A DNA stretch of 38,838 nt, taken from the IMG/VR virus record IMGVR_UViG_2718217859_000004, positions 1 through 38,838 of that record; one strand, 5' to 3'. This document shows, in pieces, positions 5,579 to 8,540 of the stretch (its first letter is position 1; the number at the start of each line of letters is the position of its first letter). The position numbers and the translations under genes are program-made. The stretch is from a virus. Lineage: Duplodnaviria; Heunggongvirae; Uroviricota; Caudoviricetes. The notes beneath the pieces were generated by a model. The model did no database searches and had not been told where the DNA came from. It worked only from the letters and a program-made list of their open reading frames with translations.

Positions 5579-6334
5579 ATGGAGACTGTTTTTGACGCAC
5601 TGAAAGCGATGGGAAAAGCCACGTCGGTAGAGCTGGCTGCGCGACTTGATGTCAGTCGTGAAGAAGTGCTGAACGAGCTGTGGGAACTCAAAAGAAATGG
5701 CGTCGTTGATAAAACTGGTCACACCTGGTTTCTGGCTGGCGAAGGTGAATCCTGGGTAACCGAAGAGCGGCCAGTAAAATCTGAAGCACAGGATATGCTG
5801 ACCGGGGAGGTCGAACAAAAAGTTACCGCAGACATGATGATTGAGTTTATCGGTCAGGAGGGGGCTAAAACGTGTGAGGAGCTGGCGAGTAAGTTCGGTG
5901 TCAGTACTCGCAAGGTTGCTTCCACGCTGGCGGTGGTAACCGCAACGGGGCGGCTGGCACGCGTTAATCAGAACGGTAAATTTCGTTACTGCATGCCGGG
6001 CGATAAGTTACCAGCAGAGCCGAAATCCGTGCCGGTAACGGAAAATGATGGTAAAGCCTTTCCTCAGCCAGCAGGTGTTGCGTTACCAGTACAGGAGGCT
6101 GCAACACAGGAAGATATTAAAACAGAAACTGTGGCTGATATGGTGCAATCGTTGCCATCGTTTACTGAAACGCGAGCGGATGACCTGGTTTTACCATCGC
6201 TGCATATGGCAAACCGCGAATTGCGTCGGGCGAAAAGTCATGTCCAGAAGTGGGAGCGAGTCTGCGCCGCGCTGCGGGAGCTGAACAAGCACCGGGATAT
6301 GGTTGCCGGGATTTGTCGGAAGTCCGGGCAATGA
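5579..6334 (+). CDS. Hypothetical prophage protein with N-terminal winged-helix-like region (DUF1627-like)
   Basis: GGGAGGG RBS; METVFDALKAMGKATSVELAARLDVSREEVLNELWELKRNGVVDKTG... Confidence 0.55.
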   Translation: METVFDALKAMGKATSVELAARLDVSREEVLNELWELKRNGVVDKTGHTWFLAGEGESWVTEERPVKSEAQDMLTGEVEQKVTADMMIEFIGQEGAKTCEELASKFGVSTRKVASTLAVVTATGRLARVNQNGKFRYCMPGDKLPAEPKSVPVTENDGKAFPQPAGVALPVQEAATQEDIKTETVADMVQSLPSFTETRADDLVLPSLHMANRELRRAKSHVQKWERVCAALRELNKHRDMVAGICRKSGQ

Positions 6335-7001
6335 GCGGATGGTGCAGGCCTGAAATTATGATACTAACAATGAAGGTAAAATGCATCGGCAGTCTGATTG
6401 GTCGTAGTGAGGCGGCGGTCAGGATGAAAGCCCGGGTTAAGGGAATAAGCCTGATTCTGCGGGGTGATTTTCACCAGTCAACAAAATATCCGTAGCGCGA
6501 TAACGGTCAAAAATCATGGCGCTGACACTTTTGTGCCACTGGAGATGACTGTACCTAAGTTCAGGGGATAAGAACACGTCCGGTGGGATGGTCGGGCCAG
6601 ATTTAAAGGGCAGGTCATGGCTCCAGCCTGTACGCTGGCAATGGAGGCTGCCTGGCGGGAAATTGATATGGGAACCACGCCACTCAGGGATTTACTGCCG
6701 GCCCAGAGAATAAATTCCTGTTACGGTTACACCACTGTGATCTTGCAAGTGCAGGAAAGTAGGTCTACACGGTAACGCGAGTGCGTGTAACTTTTGATGT
6801 CATTTCCGTAGAAACACCGGACAAATTTTCGCTGACAGGTCATGCTGAAGGTATAAATCTGCAGATTATGGACAATTACGGATATCCGGCAAGAGCCGGA
6901 AAAAGCATGCCGTCTCTAATTCTCAGTGGAAGATGGACTTGATTATACTCATTGCATTGTCAGAAATAGTTATCCATTAAAGGCTGGCTATTCCAAACAG
7001 G

Positions 7002-7029
7002 ATGTTGATTACAAAAATGTAATCAACAT
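7002..7029. promoter_or_regulatory. Perfect 12-bp inverted repeat, candidate operator
   Basis: ATGTTGATTACA-aaaa-TGTAATCAACAT in an AT-rich tract ~165 bp upstream of the substrate-binding-protein gene. Confidence 0.4.
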
Positions 7030-7193
7030 GTAAGGTTTATATTCTTCAATATGTGTATAATTTTCCTTATTTTGTTAACTTTAAATAACAAGCTATGCAC
7101 GAGGTAAAGTCGGGTAAGTTTATCTGGATGTAATATATATTATTTATAGTGTTTATAACTTTATTTCATGATAACCAATAAAAGGAGCTTTTT

Positions 7194-7952
7194 ATGAGGA
7201 ACATAATGGCTGGTTTTTTAATATTCCTGTCTTCAGCTGCTTATGCTGATATCAATCTGTATGGTCCTGGTGGCCCGCATACAGCCTTGCTTGATGCAGC
7301 CAAACTTTATGCCGAAAAAACAGGTATTATAGTGAACGTTCATTACGGCCCACAGAACAAATGGAATGAAGATGCCAAAAAAAATGCAGATATCTTGTTT
7401 GGCGCATCAGAACAATCTGCTCTGGCTATCATTCGGGACCATAAAGACAGCTTCAGTGAAAAAGATATTCAGCCTCTTTATCTGCGAAAAAGTATTTTAC
7501 TGGTAAAGAAAGGTAATCCTAAAAATATCCGGAGTATTGACGACCTGACCAGACCCGGGATTGGCGTAATTGTTAATGATGGTGGTGGTACCAGTAATAC
7601 ATCAGGCACTGGAGTCTGGGAAGATATTGCCGGACGTAAAGGGAATATAGAAACTGTCGCCGCAATCCGAAAAAATATTATTTTATATGCACCCAATAGC
7701 GGAACTGCACGTAAGGCTCTTGAGAATCAGCCTGGAGCAGATGTCTGGATAACCTGGGCTGACTGGGCAGCCAGTAATCCAGAAATTGGTGATGTCGTGG
7801 AAATAGCGCCAGACTACGTGATATGGCGTGATATGAACATTACAGTACGTCAGGATGCAAATGATGAAACCCGTCGATTTGCAGAATGGCTACAAACCGA
7901 TGAAGCGGCGCCTGCATTCAAAAAATATGGCTGGACCAGGAAAGGCACTTGA
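7194..7952 (+). CDS. Secreted periplasmic substrate-binding protein (ModA/tungstate-binding-like fold), orphan cargo gene
   Basis: AAGGAG RBS; signal peptide MRNIMAGFLIFLSSAAYA; DINLYGPGGPHTALLDAAKLYAEKTG... similar in architecture to ModA-type binding proteins; no adjacent ABC permease/ATPase; low-GC flank. Confidence 0.7.
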   Translation: MRNIMAGFLIFLSSAAYADINLYGPGGPHTALLDAAKLYAEKTGIIVNVHYGPQNKWNEDAKKNADILFGASEQSALAIIRDHKDSFSEKDIQPLYLRKSILLVKKGNPKNIRSIDDLTRPGIGVIVNDGGGTSNTSGTGVWEDIAGRKGNIETVAAIRKNIILYAPNSGTARKALENQPGADVWITWADWAASNPEIGDVVEIAPDYVIWRDMNITVRQDANDETRRFAEWLQTDEAAPAFKKYGWTRKGT

Positions 7953-7958
7953 CATCCT

Positions 7959-7987
7959 CCACGTCCATCAGGACGTGGATTCTTTTT
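7959..7987 (+). terminator. Rho-independent terminator after the substrate-binding-protein gene
   Basis: CCACGTCC-atca-GGACGTGG followed by ATTCTTTTT. Confidence 0.7.
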
Positions 7988-8234
7988 CCGGATGCCGCGC
8001 CAGCGGCATGTAGGGGCAGCTCACAAAACGGAAAAAATTGTACGCTAAGCATCGCCTATGGGAATTCCCATATCGGGCGAAAACGGTTTGCTGTAACGGC
8101 AGAGTTAAGTAGAATTGCTGCGGGTGCTTGAGGCTATCTGCCTCGGGCATGAACACCAACGGCAGATAGAGAAAAGCCCCAGTTAACATTACGCGTCCTG
8201 CAAGACGCTTAACATTAATCTGAGGCCATATCTA

Positions 8235-8438
8235 TGCGACACATAGAGATTAGCCTCTTACGGACCGAAAGGTCAAGGAGAAGCAGGCTATGAAGCAGCA
8301 AAAGGCGATGCTAATCGCCCTGATCGTCATCTGTTTAACCGTCTTAGTGACGGCACTGGTAACGAGGAAAGACCTCTGCGAGGTACGAATCCGAACCGGC
8401 CAGACGGAGGTCGCTGTCTTCACAGCTTACGAACCTGA
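8235..8438 (+). CDS. mok-like overlapping reading frame (67 codons) of the hok locus
   Basis: ATG at 8235; ORF overlaps hok in another frame and ends 7 nt before the hok stop, as mok does in hok/sok loci. Confidence 0.4.
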
Positions 8439-8445
8439 GGAGTAA
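8290..8445 (+). CDS. hokD: Hok/Gef family membrane toxin (51 aa), HokD/RelF-like
   Basis: Translation MKQQKAMLIALIVICLTVLVTALVTRKDLCEVRIRTGQTEVAVFTAYEPEE; below the 60-aa ORF-track cutoff; one TM helix plus conserved Cys. Confidence 0.85.
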   Translation: MKQQKAMLIALIVICLTVLVTALVTRKDLCEVRIRTGQTEVAVFTAYEPEE

Positions 8446-8513
8446 GAGACCTGGCGGGGGAGAAATCCTTCGCCACCTCTGATGAGTCAGGCATCCTCAA
8501 TGCACCCACACTT

Positions 8514-8540
8514 AACCCGCTTCGGCGGGTTTTTGTTTTT
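8514..8540 (+). terminator. Rho-independent terminator at the 3' end of the hok transcript
   Basis: AACCCGC-ttcg-GCGGGTT followed by TTTTGTTTTT. Confidence 0.7.

Follow-up and report, generated by a model that had tools for sequence, protein, structure and literature searches.

The orphan binding protein gene of a lambdoid E. coli prophage is paa/adfO and follows a conserved putative promoter block

Introduction

Pathogenic E. coli carry the paa gene, also called adfO, as a known colonisation-associated cargo on lambdoid prophages and plasmids. The gene serves as a standard virulence-typing marker for EPEC, EHEC, ETEC and E. albertii. Paa stands for porcine attaching-and-effacing associated protein, and AdfO is the O157:H7 name for the same protein. 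In the literature adfO (z2053) is paired with ckf in O-island 57, paa and adfO mutants have been reported to lose adherence, and the kinship of Paa, AcfC and PEB3 has been described.

AcfC of V. cholerae (4jb7) shares 47% identity with Paa (PMC5976639). Like Paa, it is periplasmic or secreted, associated with colonisation and encoded on a horizontally acquired element. On the Vibrio pathogenicity island, acfC follows acfB in an operon and is controlled by ToxT as part of the ToxR-ToxT regulon, whereas paa is monocistronic, resides on a prophage or plasmid and has a different control region. The adhesin role of AcfC was not reproduced in published work, which describes a periplasmic protein that binds sulfated glycans and mucin and affects chemotaxis, but did not mediate adhesion. 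PEB3 of C. jejuni (2hxw, 3fir, 3fjg) has the same length as Paa and binds phosphorylated metabolites. Its gene also lacks an adjacent ABC transporter, and peb3 transcription is controlled by the response regulator BumR. In contrast to Paa, PEB3 is chromosomally encoded and N-glycosylated at a D-F-N-V-S sequon, where Paa has DSFSEKD.

With regard to its genomic setting, paa resembles the morons of lambdoid phages (lambda bor and lom, sopE- or sodC-type cargo), which are self-contained units of deviant GC content with their own terminator between phage modules. It differs from them in that the paa cassette also occurs on IncF and IncI plasmids and is flanked by a Tn3-family inverted repeat relic and a fimbrial gene fragment. 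Here we describe a paa copy in a viral DNA of 38,838 nucleotides, the whole of which is referred to as the window. The original prediction for this locus, made from the sequence alone, was an orphan secreted binding protein preceded by a palindromic regulator site.

Results

The orphan binding protein is Paa/AdfO

The open reading frame at 7194-7952 is preceded by an AGGAG ribosome-binding site 6 nt upstream of its start codon. An exact-sequence look-up found the protein on at least 1000 public contigs under the name 'AcfC family adhesin Paa'. Phage records label the gene product Paa/AdfO, and paa is annotated at the same place by RefSeq in 572 complete E. coli genomes. The gene for the orphan binding protein is paa/adfO, and nothing of substance distinguishes it from the gene in O-island 57 of O157:H7. 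The anticipated phage-carried host-interaction factor is thus an already described gene, and since paa is so well known, the finding as such is ordinary.

Homology and structure searches placed the protein in the AcfC/PEB3 family. The Pfam model SBP_bac_11 matched residues 20-247, which span the mature protein, with an E-value of 5.5e-34 and 118.3 bits (cut-off 25). In a search against the PDB, PEB3 (3fir) was matched by residues 11-248 with an E-value of 1.2e-81 and 52.5% identity over 238 residues, on par with AcfC (4jb7; 3.5e-81). The nearest matches outside the family were sulfate-binding proteins. Judged from its sequence, the N-terminus (MRNIMAGFLIFLSSAAYA followed by DINLYGPGG) resembles a Sec signal peptide. 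In the alignment, the first residue of the mature PEB3 chain in the crystal structure 2hxw_A pairs with residue 19 of Paa. Both proteins share the cleavage context A-x-A followed by D-[IV]-N-L-Y-G-P-G-G-P-H as well as an SNTSGTGVWED loop. The open reading frame, its N-terminus, the Pfam match and the PEB3 alignment bear out the predicted signal-peptide-bearing binding protein of 252 aa. The proposed ModA-like architecture holds for the fold superfamily but not for the protein itself, as the modA model TIGR01256 reached only 18.3 bits (cut-off 62.5) and other modA models 11.7-17.7 bits (cut-offs 253-470). An identity as Sbp or CysP was rejected likewise, with the NCBIfam models far under their cut-offs.

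Neither modB nor modC was found next to paa in annotated equivalents of this prophage. ABC transporter genes were absent from the vicinity of paa in the annotated prophage equivalents (L001 and L019), in the plasmid loci and in three 40%-identical relatives from other genera, and no linked transporter or chemoreceptor partner was detected across more than 15 contexts. The expected lack of ABC partners was thereby confirmed, and with paa itself intact the gene is not a fragment of a disrupted transporter operon. Full-length similarity, the SBP_bac_11 fold, the signal peptide with a mature start at D-[IV]-N-L-Y-G-P-G-G, identity to curated records and the missing ABC partner all characterize Paa as a member of the AcfC/PEB3/Paa family. 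Paa would be exported via its Sec signal peptide and would act as a class-II periplasmic binding protein that needs no ABC transporter of its own. Going by the homologues that have been solved and studied, it may bind a small or polymeric anion, such as a phospho- or sulfo-compound, and thereby promote adherence and colonisation. Both this ligand class and the role as adhesin rather than as sensor or transport protein are drawn from the homologues.

The paa gene lies on a portable cassette

The prophage is lambdoid and PPompW-like (PPompW/CP-933O-type) and carries paa between the replication genes and hok/sok. More precisely, paa is located between a DUF1627 gene and hokD, named ckf in O157:H7, which is its normal right-hand neighbour. 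The same neighbours (DUF1627, fimbrial pseudogene and hokD/ckf) accompany paa in the 572 complete genomes and in PPompW records, while many related prophages do not contain paa at all. At the DNA level the copy in the window is 96-98.6% identical to deposited loci. A 2-kb query was matched in part in 4406 genomes, of which only 572 matched at least 80% of it. The plasmid matches span positions 541-559 to 1561-1566 of a query comprising window positions 6450-8050. Relative to position 7008, pairwise BLAST comparisons placed the left limit of homology with these alleles at -19 to 0 and the right limit at +1002 to +1007; over ten different left flanks, the start of homology ranged from -27 to 0. 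The features of the locus are summarized in Table 1.

Table 1. Features of the paa locus and the evidence on which they are based. Positions refer to the window.
Feature	Position	Strand	Description and basis
Fimbrial subunit pseudogene fragment	6500..6990	+	RefSeq annotation of L001 and alignment to intact gene
Portable paa cassette	6990..8012	+	Stretch common to plasmid-borne alleles, 85-89% DNA identity
Perfect 12-n4-12 palindrome	7002..7029	.	ATGTTGATTACA AAAA TGTAATCAACAT; inverted-repeat search; prophage-lineage-specific form
Conserved core	7008..7025	.	ATTACAAAAATGTAATCA (6-bp arms, 4-bp spacer, then CA); allele alignment; proposed transcription factor site/upstream promoter element
Motif at position of a -35 element	7029..7040	+	TGT[A/C]AG[G/C]TTTAT; column conservation in allele alignment
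Predicted -10 hexamer	7055..7060	+	TATAAT; allele alignment; implied start near 7067
paa/adfO	7194..7952	+	252-aa AcfC/PEB3-family periplasmic binding-fold protein; signal peptide = residues 1-18
Intrinsic-terminator-like hairpin	7958..7989	+	TCCACGTCC-ATCA-GGACGTGGA then TTCTTTTTCC; terminator scan, prediction
Second perfect hairpin	7992..8009	.	ATGCCGC-GCCA-GCGGCAT; conserved in plasmid alleles (alignment)
Solo Tn3-family terminal inverted repeat	8013..8050	+	Alignment to inverted repeats of L081; bounds cassette right end
hok/sok type I toxin-antitoxin locus (hokD; 'ckf' in O157:H7)	8122..8445	+	Rfam sok 101 bits; Pfam HOK_GEF 4.9e-24

The DNA upstream of paa had been taken for a gene-poor AT-rich tract of about 700 bp. 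This description was not borne out as it stood, because the GC content is approximately 50% over 6300-6900, falls to 0.30-0.40 only across 6750-7350 and is truly AT-rich only at about 6950-7200, and because most of the region is a decayed fimbrial gene rather than empty cargo DNA. In the 97% identical locus L001, RefSeq lists it as "fimbrial protein, frameshifted; internal stop". Comparison with an intact chromosomal E. coli fimbrial gene (L017:3504-4091), which belongs to a complete chaperone-usher operon, displayed the loss of the 5′ part encoding the signal peptide and of the last approx. 36 bp, along with frame-shifting deletions of 10 bp and 5 bp. Over the stretch 6940-6992, intact fimbrial genes of E. 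coli match with 90-92% identity. The pseudogene is missing from all plasmid copies of paa and lies outside the cassette.

Downstream of paa, the predicted terminator hairpin (7958-7979) begins 6 nt past the stop codon and consists of nine pairs, six of them G-C, followed by a T-run, in line with the expectation that the gene has its own terminator. The cassette homology with the plasmids ends at the inverted repeat at 8013-8050, whose outer GGGG end points toward paa. This sequence of about 38 bp, GGGG...ACGCTAAG, aligns gap-free to the 39-bp inverted repeat GGGGTCGTCTCAGAAAACGGAAAAAATCGTACGCTAAGC, and all but one of 25 inner positions are identical. The 39-bp reference repeats flank a complete tnpR-tnpA element of the Tn3 family in L081. 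The repeat at 8013-8050 occurs as a single copy, with neither a partner nor a complete transposon in the window, and is a transposon relic.

As in a moron, paa stands between conserved phage modules, has a predicted terminator of its own and deviates in base composition (GC 0.30-0.47 across 6900-7950 versus 0.50-0.59 in the phage genes on either side). Regarding a promoter of its own, a conserved block contains a perfect TATAAT (7055-7060), but it lacks a -35 element and received no call in a consensus scan. The cassette, about 1 kb in length, would be self-contained, comprising promoter region, gene and terminator; in the phage it lies between a dead fimbrial fragment and a solo Tn3-family inverted repeat. 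These two flanking relics make it probable that the cassette arrived from a plasmid or a chromosomal island rather than evolving in phages. An ancestral pair of an alpha/beta hydrolase gene and an acfC-like gene, considered from the arrangement on the E. coli plasmids L012 and L013 and that next to phoBR in A. baumannii, was dismissed as the hydrolases are unrelated (E = 0.47).

The inner part of an upstream palindrome is conserved

The predicted perfect inverted repeat about 165 bp upstream of the gene was found at 7002-7029, where it ends 164 nt before the paa ATG. Even with three mismatches allowed it is the only one of its kind in the window, and none of 100 shuffled sequences contained it. 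The number of half-sites in the window was 11 compared to 8.6 expected, and they form no second dyad; an operator of a phage repressor was rejected on these grounds. The palindrome was perfect in 43 of 43 sampled IMG/VR prophage contigs and in L001 and L019, so it is not missing from near-identical prophages. As these copies are 96-99% identical overall, their agreement carries little weight.

The more diverged plasmid alleles (85-89% DNA identity) retain only the inner 18 bp, ATTACAAAAATGTAATCA. Their outer left arm reads CTGTGC, TTGTAC or ACAC..., without any compensatory substitution in the right arm, which stays TGTAATCAA. The core was identical in seven of nine aligned alleles, representing seven flanking contexts; the other two had an A to G exchange in the spacer or an additional spacer A. 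It was also kept in two further intact alleles (L087 and L088) and mutated to ATTGCA in L085, the sole allele with a disrupted paa. To the left of the core and in the distal 5′UTR the alleles diverge, and the core is better conserved than the surrounding DNA. The perfect 12-bp arms are a lineage-specific change, in which the left arm of a quasi-palindrome was probably 'corrected' to match the conserved right arm. Other intact alleles lack them.

That the palindrome might be where the fimbrial gene naturally ends or terminates was considered and rejected. The intact gene ends with codons for GDYYAALRFKLDYE and a stop, and homology to it ceases at about 6990, short of the palindrome. A pattern of 22 specified bases representing the palindrome with its outer arms had no match in Enterobacterales among 185,579 species-representative genomes and hit five unrelated genomes (Burkholderiales, Rheinheimera, Bacteroidota, Priestia and Oscillospiraceae). 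The 18-mer core had matches in 18 unrelated phage contigs. In many of them a TGGTGGA motif recurs some 40 bp further downstream, and judged by this shared motif these matches look like one coding sequence. To our knowledge, neither CRP, FNR, Fur, LexA, Fis or IHF nor CpxR, EvgA, Zur, TyrR, Xer/dif or integron attC has a consensus that fits the palindrome in sequence and spacing. No regulator gene travels with the cassette in the neighbourhoods examined. The DUF1627 protein (5579-6334) gave weak winged-helix matches, is common in prophages without paa and is absent from plasmid cassettes, and was discarded as a dedicated regulator. With variable outer arms, no linked regulator and no second site in the window or in the Enterobacterales species representatives, the presumed dedicated regulator site is at best a hypothesis for the conserved inner core.

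The core belongs to a putative promoter block

Together with the conserved TGTAAGGTTTAT and the TATAAT hexamer, the core forms a block of about 55 bp. Across ten different flanking contexts, the paa cassette has this block at its left boundary. The distance between core and -10 hexamer is fixed across alleles. TATAAT is unchanged in six of the nine aligned alleles, and the three most distant ones carry one substitution each (TATAGT in L011, TATGAT in L012 and L013). In these three, homology upstream of the coding region is confined to +0 to +56 from the core, and the 5′UTR has diverged. Within the motif at 7029-7040, a third TGTAA-type hexamer follows the second at a distance of 11 bp. A consensus scan called no sigma-70 promoter in 7030-7066, which is explained by the poor -35 region. 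The sole promoter-like match of the scan on the plus strand (6920-6949) lies 5′ of the palindrome inside the pseudogene.

From this pattern of conservation we infer that the block is the paa promoter and the core a putative regulator-binding site. Control of peb3 by BumR and of acfC by ToxR-ToxT are precedents for such regulation within the family. The palindrome would then not be a free-standing operator; rather, its inner 18 bp would be the upstream-most conserved element of a promoter with three phased TGTAA-type hexamers at 7008 (inverted), 7018 and 7029, a perfect -10 hexamer at 7055-7060 and no usable -35 element. Most likely, RNA polymerase would be recruited by an activator that the host encodes, a dimer or a multi-subunit factor, occupying about -59 to -33.

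Against this mechanism, classical dimeric activators do not usually bind at sites centred near -51.5.

Discussion

The locus is best explained as the known moron-type paa cassette, encoding an anion-binding protein of the AcfC/PEB3 family, with the palindrome core as part of the promoter block and the 12-bp arms as a lineage-specific feature. We assign this reading a probability of roughly 85%.

Several other explanations for the palindrome and the conserved block were weighed against it. The palindrome could be devoid of a regulatory role and be a by-product of template switching at the recombination edge of the cassette, its core having been kept simply because the alleles are recent. The uncompensated variation of the outer arms and the location within 27 bp of every left junction fit this idea, and the GC to TG change that perfects the left arm affects adjacent bases, as a templated correction would. 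However, in L011-L013, whose proteins are 86-88% identical, the core, the -35-region motif and the -10 hexamer are kept in register although the 5′UTR has changed beyond recognition, which indicates constraint and not recency and makes a role-free palindrome unlikely. Still less probable is a function as RNA or DNA hairpin, be it as a weak terminator or insulator against read-through from the phage early-right or fimbrial region, or as a stabilising 5′ hairpin. Folding predicts a stable structure (centroid -13.8 kcal/mol, z = -3.0 versus shuffles) for the hairpin, and the promoter-like site at 6920-6949, the transcription start presupposed by the 5′-hairpin variant, lies upstream of it. That site, however, belongs to the pseudogene and is missing in every plasmid context. 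Moreover, only three of the 12 stem pairs are G-C, the following GTAAGGTTTA contains no T-run, the terminator scan gave no call, and the A/T-rich arms of merely 6-10 bp retained in plasmid alleles are too weak to terminate.

The phosphorylated ligands of PEB3 would also suit a Pho box within the block, which would place paa in the phosphate regulon under activation by PhoB. ATGTAAT-CAAC-ATGTAAG (7017-7034) has the 7-4-7 direct-repeat format, and its score of 9.9 bits with a matrix from 12 published Pho sites ranks 9th of 77,642 positions in the window. Yet eight unrelated sites in the window score higher, most genuine Pho boxes exceed this value (leave-one-out 7.7-18.5 bits, mostly 10-18), the candidate box ends 20 bp instead of about 10 bp from the -10 hexamer, and Z2053/adfO is absent from the published microarray tables of Pi- and PhoB-dependent genes of EDL933. 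Matrix score, spacing and these tables speak against the Pho box, and we regard this assignment as highly improbable. With respect to the protein, Paa might chiefly serve nutrient uptake or chemosensing by passing a phospho- or sulfo-metabolite to a chromosomal transporter or chemoreceptor, so that adhesion would be indirect. The chemotaxis phenotype and glycan binding of the non-adhesive AcfC and the proximity to sulfate-binding proteins in the PDB search point in this direction; the adherence defects of paa and adfO mutants and the missing partner genes argue against it. We consider such a role a serious possibility, albeit one with less than even odds.

As paa/adfO and its presence on such prophages are already documented, the identification has little weight as a discovery. 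The sole unpublished detail is that, within the likely paa promoter, conservation is highest in the inner part of the palindrome. A search of the accessible literature found no account of paa/adfO regulation and turned up no transcription start, expression or binding data for this promoter, and the control region has apparently not been dissected; comparing alleles confines it to about 55 bp (7008-7060), including a precisely defined 18-bp element. Tentatively, the core and the two phased TGTAA hexamers might be the docking site of a chromosomal E. coli regulator, linking the moving cassette to a host regulon. If true, the junctions of ten independent flanking contexts within 27 bp of this site would mean either that the cassette has been trimmed to a minimal regulated unit or that the palindrome is used by an unrecognised site-specific process. 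Finally, the seemingly empty upstream DNA is a datable fimbrial pseudogene, which together with the downstream Tn3-family relic indicates how the cassette has travelled among plasmids, chromosome and phage.

Identity of the ORF and its product

The 252-aa product of the ORF contains an SBP_bac_11 domain (residues 20–247, 5.5e-34, Pfam). Its top match among solved structures is PEB3 of C. jejuni (1.2e-81; 52.5% identity over 238 residues), and the structure of V. cholerae AcfC matches at 3.5e-81, whereas the next matches, sulfate-binding proteins, reach merely ~1e-4. Residue 19 aligns with the first residue of mature PEB3 chains, which fits signal-peptide cleavage between MRNIMAGFLIFLSSAAYA and DINLYG. 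These data bear out the original prediction of a secreted protein with a binding-protein fold, and the ORF is followed by a predicted terminator of its own, as proposed. The ModA-like reading holds only at the level of the fold superfamily. The modA model scored 18.3 bits against a cut-off of 62.5, and all curated models for molybdate-, sulfate- and thiosulfate-binding proteins remained far under their cut-offs.

At least 1000 public contigs encode an identical protein, named 'AcfC family adhesin Paa'. In PPompW-group phage records with 98.6% identity the gene is called "Paa/adherence factor AdfO", and the full 6300–8300 stretch was present in 572 of 5,426 complete E. coli genomes (megablast), where RefSeq annotates the gene as paa. 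Paa, PEB3 and AcfC are homologous colonisation factors (PMC5976639). In O157:H7, adfO (z2053) is a virulence gene of O-island 57 and is constantly accompanied by ckf (z2054), a hok-family virulence gene of the same island (PMC8565820). The exact protein match, the locus matches and this literature demonstrate that a known gene was rediscovered at its known place.

Features of the paa region (positions in the window)
Feature	Position	Strand	Remarks
DUF1627 gene	5579–6334		just upstream of the cargo
Decayed fimbrial subunit gene	~6500–6990		truncated, frameshifted
Palindrome	7002–7029		28 bp, perfect
TGT[A/C]AG[G/C]TTTAT	7029–7040		conserved in register
TATAAT	7055–7060		conserved in register
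Predicted transcription start	~7067
paa ORF	7194–7952	+	252 aa, AGGAG in front
Predicted terminator-like hairpin of paa	from 6 nt past stop	+	9-bp G+C-rich stem, then T-run
Second perfect hairpin	7992–8009		ATGCCGC-GCCA-GCGGCAT
Solo Tn3-family terminal inverted repeat	~8013–8050		38 bp, GGGGCAGCTCACAAAACGGAAAAAATTGTACGCTAAG; outer end abuts paa cassette
hok/sok locus	8122–8445		complete
isrK-like match	8454–8535		sub-threshold

paa is a solitary cargo gene of prophages and plasmids

In annotated equivalents of the prophage, exonuclease, dicB, cI/cro-type repressors, replication genes and DUF1627 precede paa, which is followed by hokD, DUF968, rusA, Q, tRNAs, terminase, and head and tail genes. 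No transporter components were found in these equivalents, beside paa alleles on more than 10 plasmids, or beside three relatives with 40–44% identity (Agrobacterium, Sulfitobacter and Acinetobacter). The lack of ABC partners was therefore correctly noted, and the gene is not the remnant of a disrupted transporter operon: it is intact and stands alone elsewhere too. Solitary encoding is normal for the AcfC/PEB3/Paa family, and paa is cargo of a lambdoid prophage and of plasmids.

The downstream hok/sok locus comprises sok (Rfam, 101 bits) and a 51-aa HokD; this hokD is the 'ckf' described in the literature as the constant companion of adfO. Just downstream of it, an Rfam match to the Hfq-binding sRNA isrK reached 23.7 bits compared to a gathering score of 50; a prophage sRNA that has diverged is the probable explanation, or else chance. 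The DUF1627 protein displayed weak winged-helix matches under Pfam cut-offs (HTH_11, HTH_PafC, FeoC and others) at two places, residues ~4–50 and ~86–133, which suggests a DNA-binding protein.

The upstream tract contains a fimbrial pseudogene

The ~700-bp tract in front of paa had been described as AT-rich and gene-poor. A GC content of 0.30–0.40 was indeed observed, but only across 6750–7350; over 6300–6900 it is ~0.50. The apparent lack of genes is accounted for by a decayed fimbrial subunit gene. Positions 6940–6992 are 90–92% identical to intact "fimbrial protein" genes of other E. coli chromosomes. Alignment of 6330–7045 with one intact subunit gene (L017:3504–4091), which belongs to a complete chaperone-usher operon of regulator, subunit, usher and chaperone, revealed homology from ~6500–6530 to 6990. 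The fragment carries deletions of 10 bp and 5 bp and lacks the last ~36 bp of the intact gene, which ends in GDYYAALRFKLDYE and the stop; RefSeq labels the equivalent stretch a frameshifted pseudogene. As the palindrome lies just past the end of this homology, it is not part of the fimbrial gene.

Symmetry and conservation of the palindrome

The perfect inverted repeat ATGTTGATTACA-AAAA-TGTAATCAACAT is located 164 nt 5' of the ATG, as had been noticed from the sequence. It is single-copy in the window with 3 mismatches tolerated, and 0 of 100 shuffles contained one. All 43 IMG/VR prophage-type contigs recovered by the 18-mer core and the prophage loci L001 and L019 carry it in perfect form, so it is not missing from like prophages. 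Since the prophage loci are 96–99% identical overall, the shared palindrome says little about constraint.

The core ATTACAAAAATGTAATCA (7008–7025) was unchanged in seven of nine aligned paa alleles representing 7 flanking contexts; the remaining two differ from it in the spacer, by an A>G exchange and by one additional A, respectively. Two further intact alleles (L087 and L088) retain the core. Among diverged alleles the outer left arm varies (CTGTGC, TTGTAC, CTGGGC, ACAC or ATAC) against a constant right arm TGTAATCAA, and no compensatory pairs for the outer arms were found, indicating that symmetry past 6 bp is not maintained. In the long-arm alleles (window, L007 and L008) adjacent substitutions match the left arm to the conserved right arm, from which we infer templated quasi-palindrome correction.

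A core mutation, ATTACA to ATTGCA, was observed at L085:1500–1560 (E. albertii pEA26_2), where paa is unannotated and in two pieces (tblastn); a single case in the lone disrupted allele counts for little. ATTACAAAAATGTAATCA also occurs in 18 unrelated IMG/VR phage contigs (L023, L030, L031, L034 and 14 others), many with TGGTGGA ~40 bp downstream. These copies seem to belong to a single conserved coding sequence, and their occurrence is a coincidence unrelated to paa.

A promoter-like block downstream of the core

Two elements downstream of the core are conserved in register, TGT[A/C]AG[G/C]TTTAT and a predicted, perfect -10 hexamer, the latter reading TATAGT or TATGAT in L011–L013. In these three alleles upstream homology with the window is confined to +0 to +56 from the core (7008 as zero), and beyond this stretch the leader is unrelated up to the coding region. 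Nothing resembling TTGACA is found 16–18 bp upstream of the -10 hexamer. Three TGTAA-type hexamers are present at 7008 (inverted), 7018 and 7029, spaced by 10 and 11 bp, the last at the -35 position. Relative to the predicted start, the core extends from ~-59 to -42 with the dyad centre at ~-51.5. The block thus resembles a promoter preceded by an element for protein binding.

Several other explanations of the palindrome were considered. Its RNA would fold with -13.8 kcal/mol (z = -3.0), but a role as terminator is unlikely, as no T-run follows the stem and the terminator scan did not call it; the plasmid versions would be too weak to terminate. The only promoter-like match upstream of the palindrome (6920–6949) lies in the pseudogene and is missing from the plasmids. 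An operator of the phage's own was rejected, and no recurrence of the palindrome was detected in species-representative Enterobacterales genomes. Because PEB3 binds phosphorylated metabolites, a Pho box was tried with a 12-site matrix (PMC3978041 Table S4). ATGTAATCAACATGTAAG scored 9.9 bits and ranked 9 of 77,642 positions. This is the low end of genuine boxes, with eight unrelated window sites above it; ATGTAATCAACATGTAAG is 20 bp instead of ~10 bp from the -10 hexamer, and Z2053 is absent from the Pi-/PhoB-dependent gene lists of EDL933. The low score, wrong distance and missing listing leave the Pho hypothesis unsupported. Resemblances to the other consensus sequences considered all fail on spacing.

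Edges of the paa cassette

Plasmid alleles match the window solely from ~6990–7008 to ~8010–8015, with 85–89% DNA and 92–95% protein identity. They lack the fimbrial fragment and their flanks vary: a Tn3-family tnpA fragment by STa/IS1 on ETEC-type plasmids, and elsewhere IS21, IS3 or a glycerol dehydrogenase gene, among others. Several plasmid alleles (L018 and L014) abut such tnpA fragments.

Cassette limits were determined by pairwise BLAST of eleven loci, with the core motif as anchor. In every pair with differing flanks the left limit fell -27 to 0 bp from 7008 (window 6981–7008); L085, an eleventh context, starts at -19 as judged by eye. Across the window, L007–L013, L016 and L085–L088, ten different left-flank contexts show this left edge. 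Right limits were scattered from +950 to +1250 (~300 bp), and the repA4/RepFII backbone common to many IncF plasmids lies at this side. The crowding of left junctions against the core fits a role of the core as outer functional edge of the paa unit. It could reflect trimming to such an edge or a site-specific process; at the left edge neither a transposon end nor an Xer or attC site could be recognised.

In the prophage, the right limit of cassette homology coincides with GGGGCAGCTCACAAAACGGAAAAAATTGTACGCTAAG, which aligns without gaps to the 39-bp terminal repeats bounding a complete tnpR-tnpA Tn3-family transposon on a Leclercia plasmid (L081), with all but one of 25 inner positions identical. 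No partner repeat or transposase was found within the window, and GGGGCAGCTCACAAAACGGAAAAAATTGTACGCTAAG is therefore regarded as a solo relic. Homology begins again with hok/sok at ~8110. The second perfect hairpin, between the paa terminator and this repeat, is kept in plasmid alleles and ends in CAT followed by GTA[A/G]GG, as the upstream palindrome does.

Proposed function and expression of Paa

paa is an intact, solitary gene of the AcfC/PEB3 family that encodes a signal peptide; a conserved block precedes it and a predicted terminator of its own follows. Comparison of the alleles suggests that transcription would begin ~125 nt before the ATG at a -10-only promoter, which may depend on a host factor at the core and hexamer array. 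By analogy to its homologues, mature Paa would be a two-lobed periplasmic or surface-exposed binding protein clamping an anionic ligand. AcfC binds sulfated glycans or mucin (PMC5976639), and PEB3 binds 3-phosphoglycerate or PEP. Ligand binding would help the cells to adhere or to position themselves in the gut; mutants of paa and adfO are reported to adhere less (PMC5976639, PMC8565820).

Publications or annotations already cover the gene and its family, as well as its location in prophages and its pairing with hok/ckf. Small, unsurprising additions are the detailed layout of the control region and the relics beside the cassette; they are useful for work on paa regulation.
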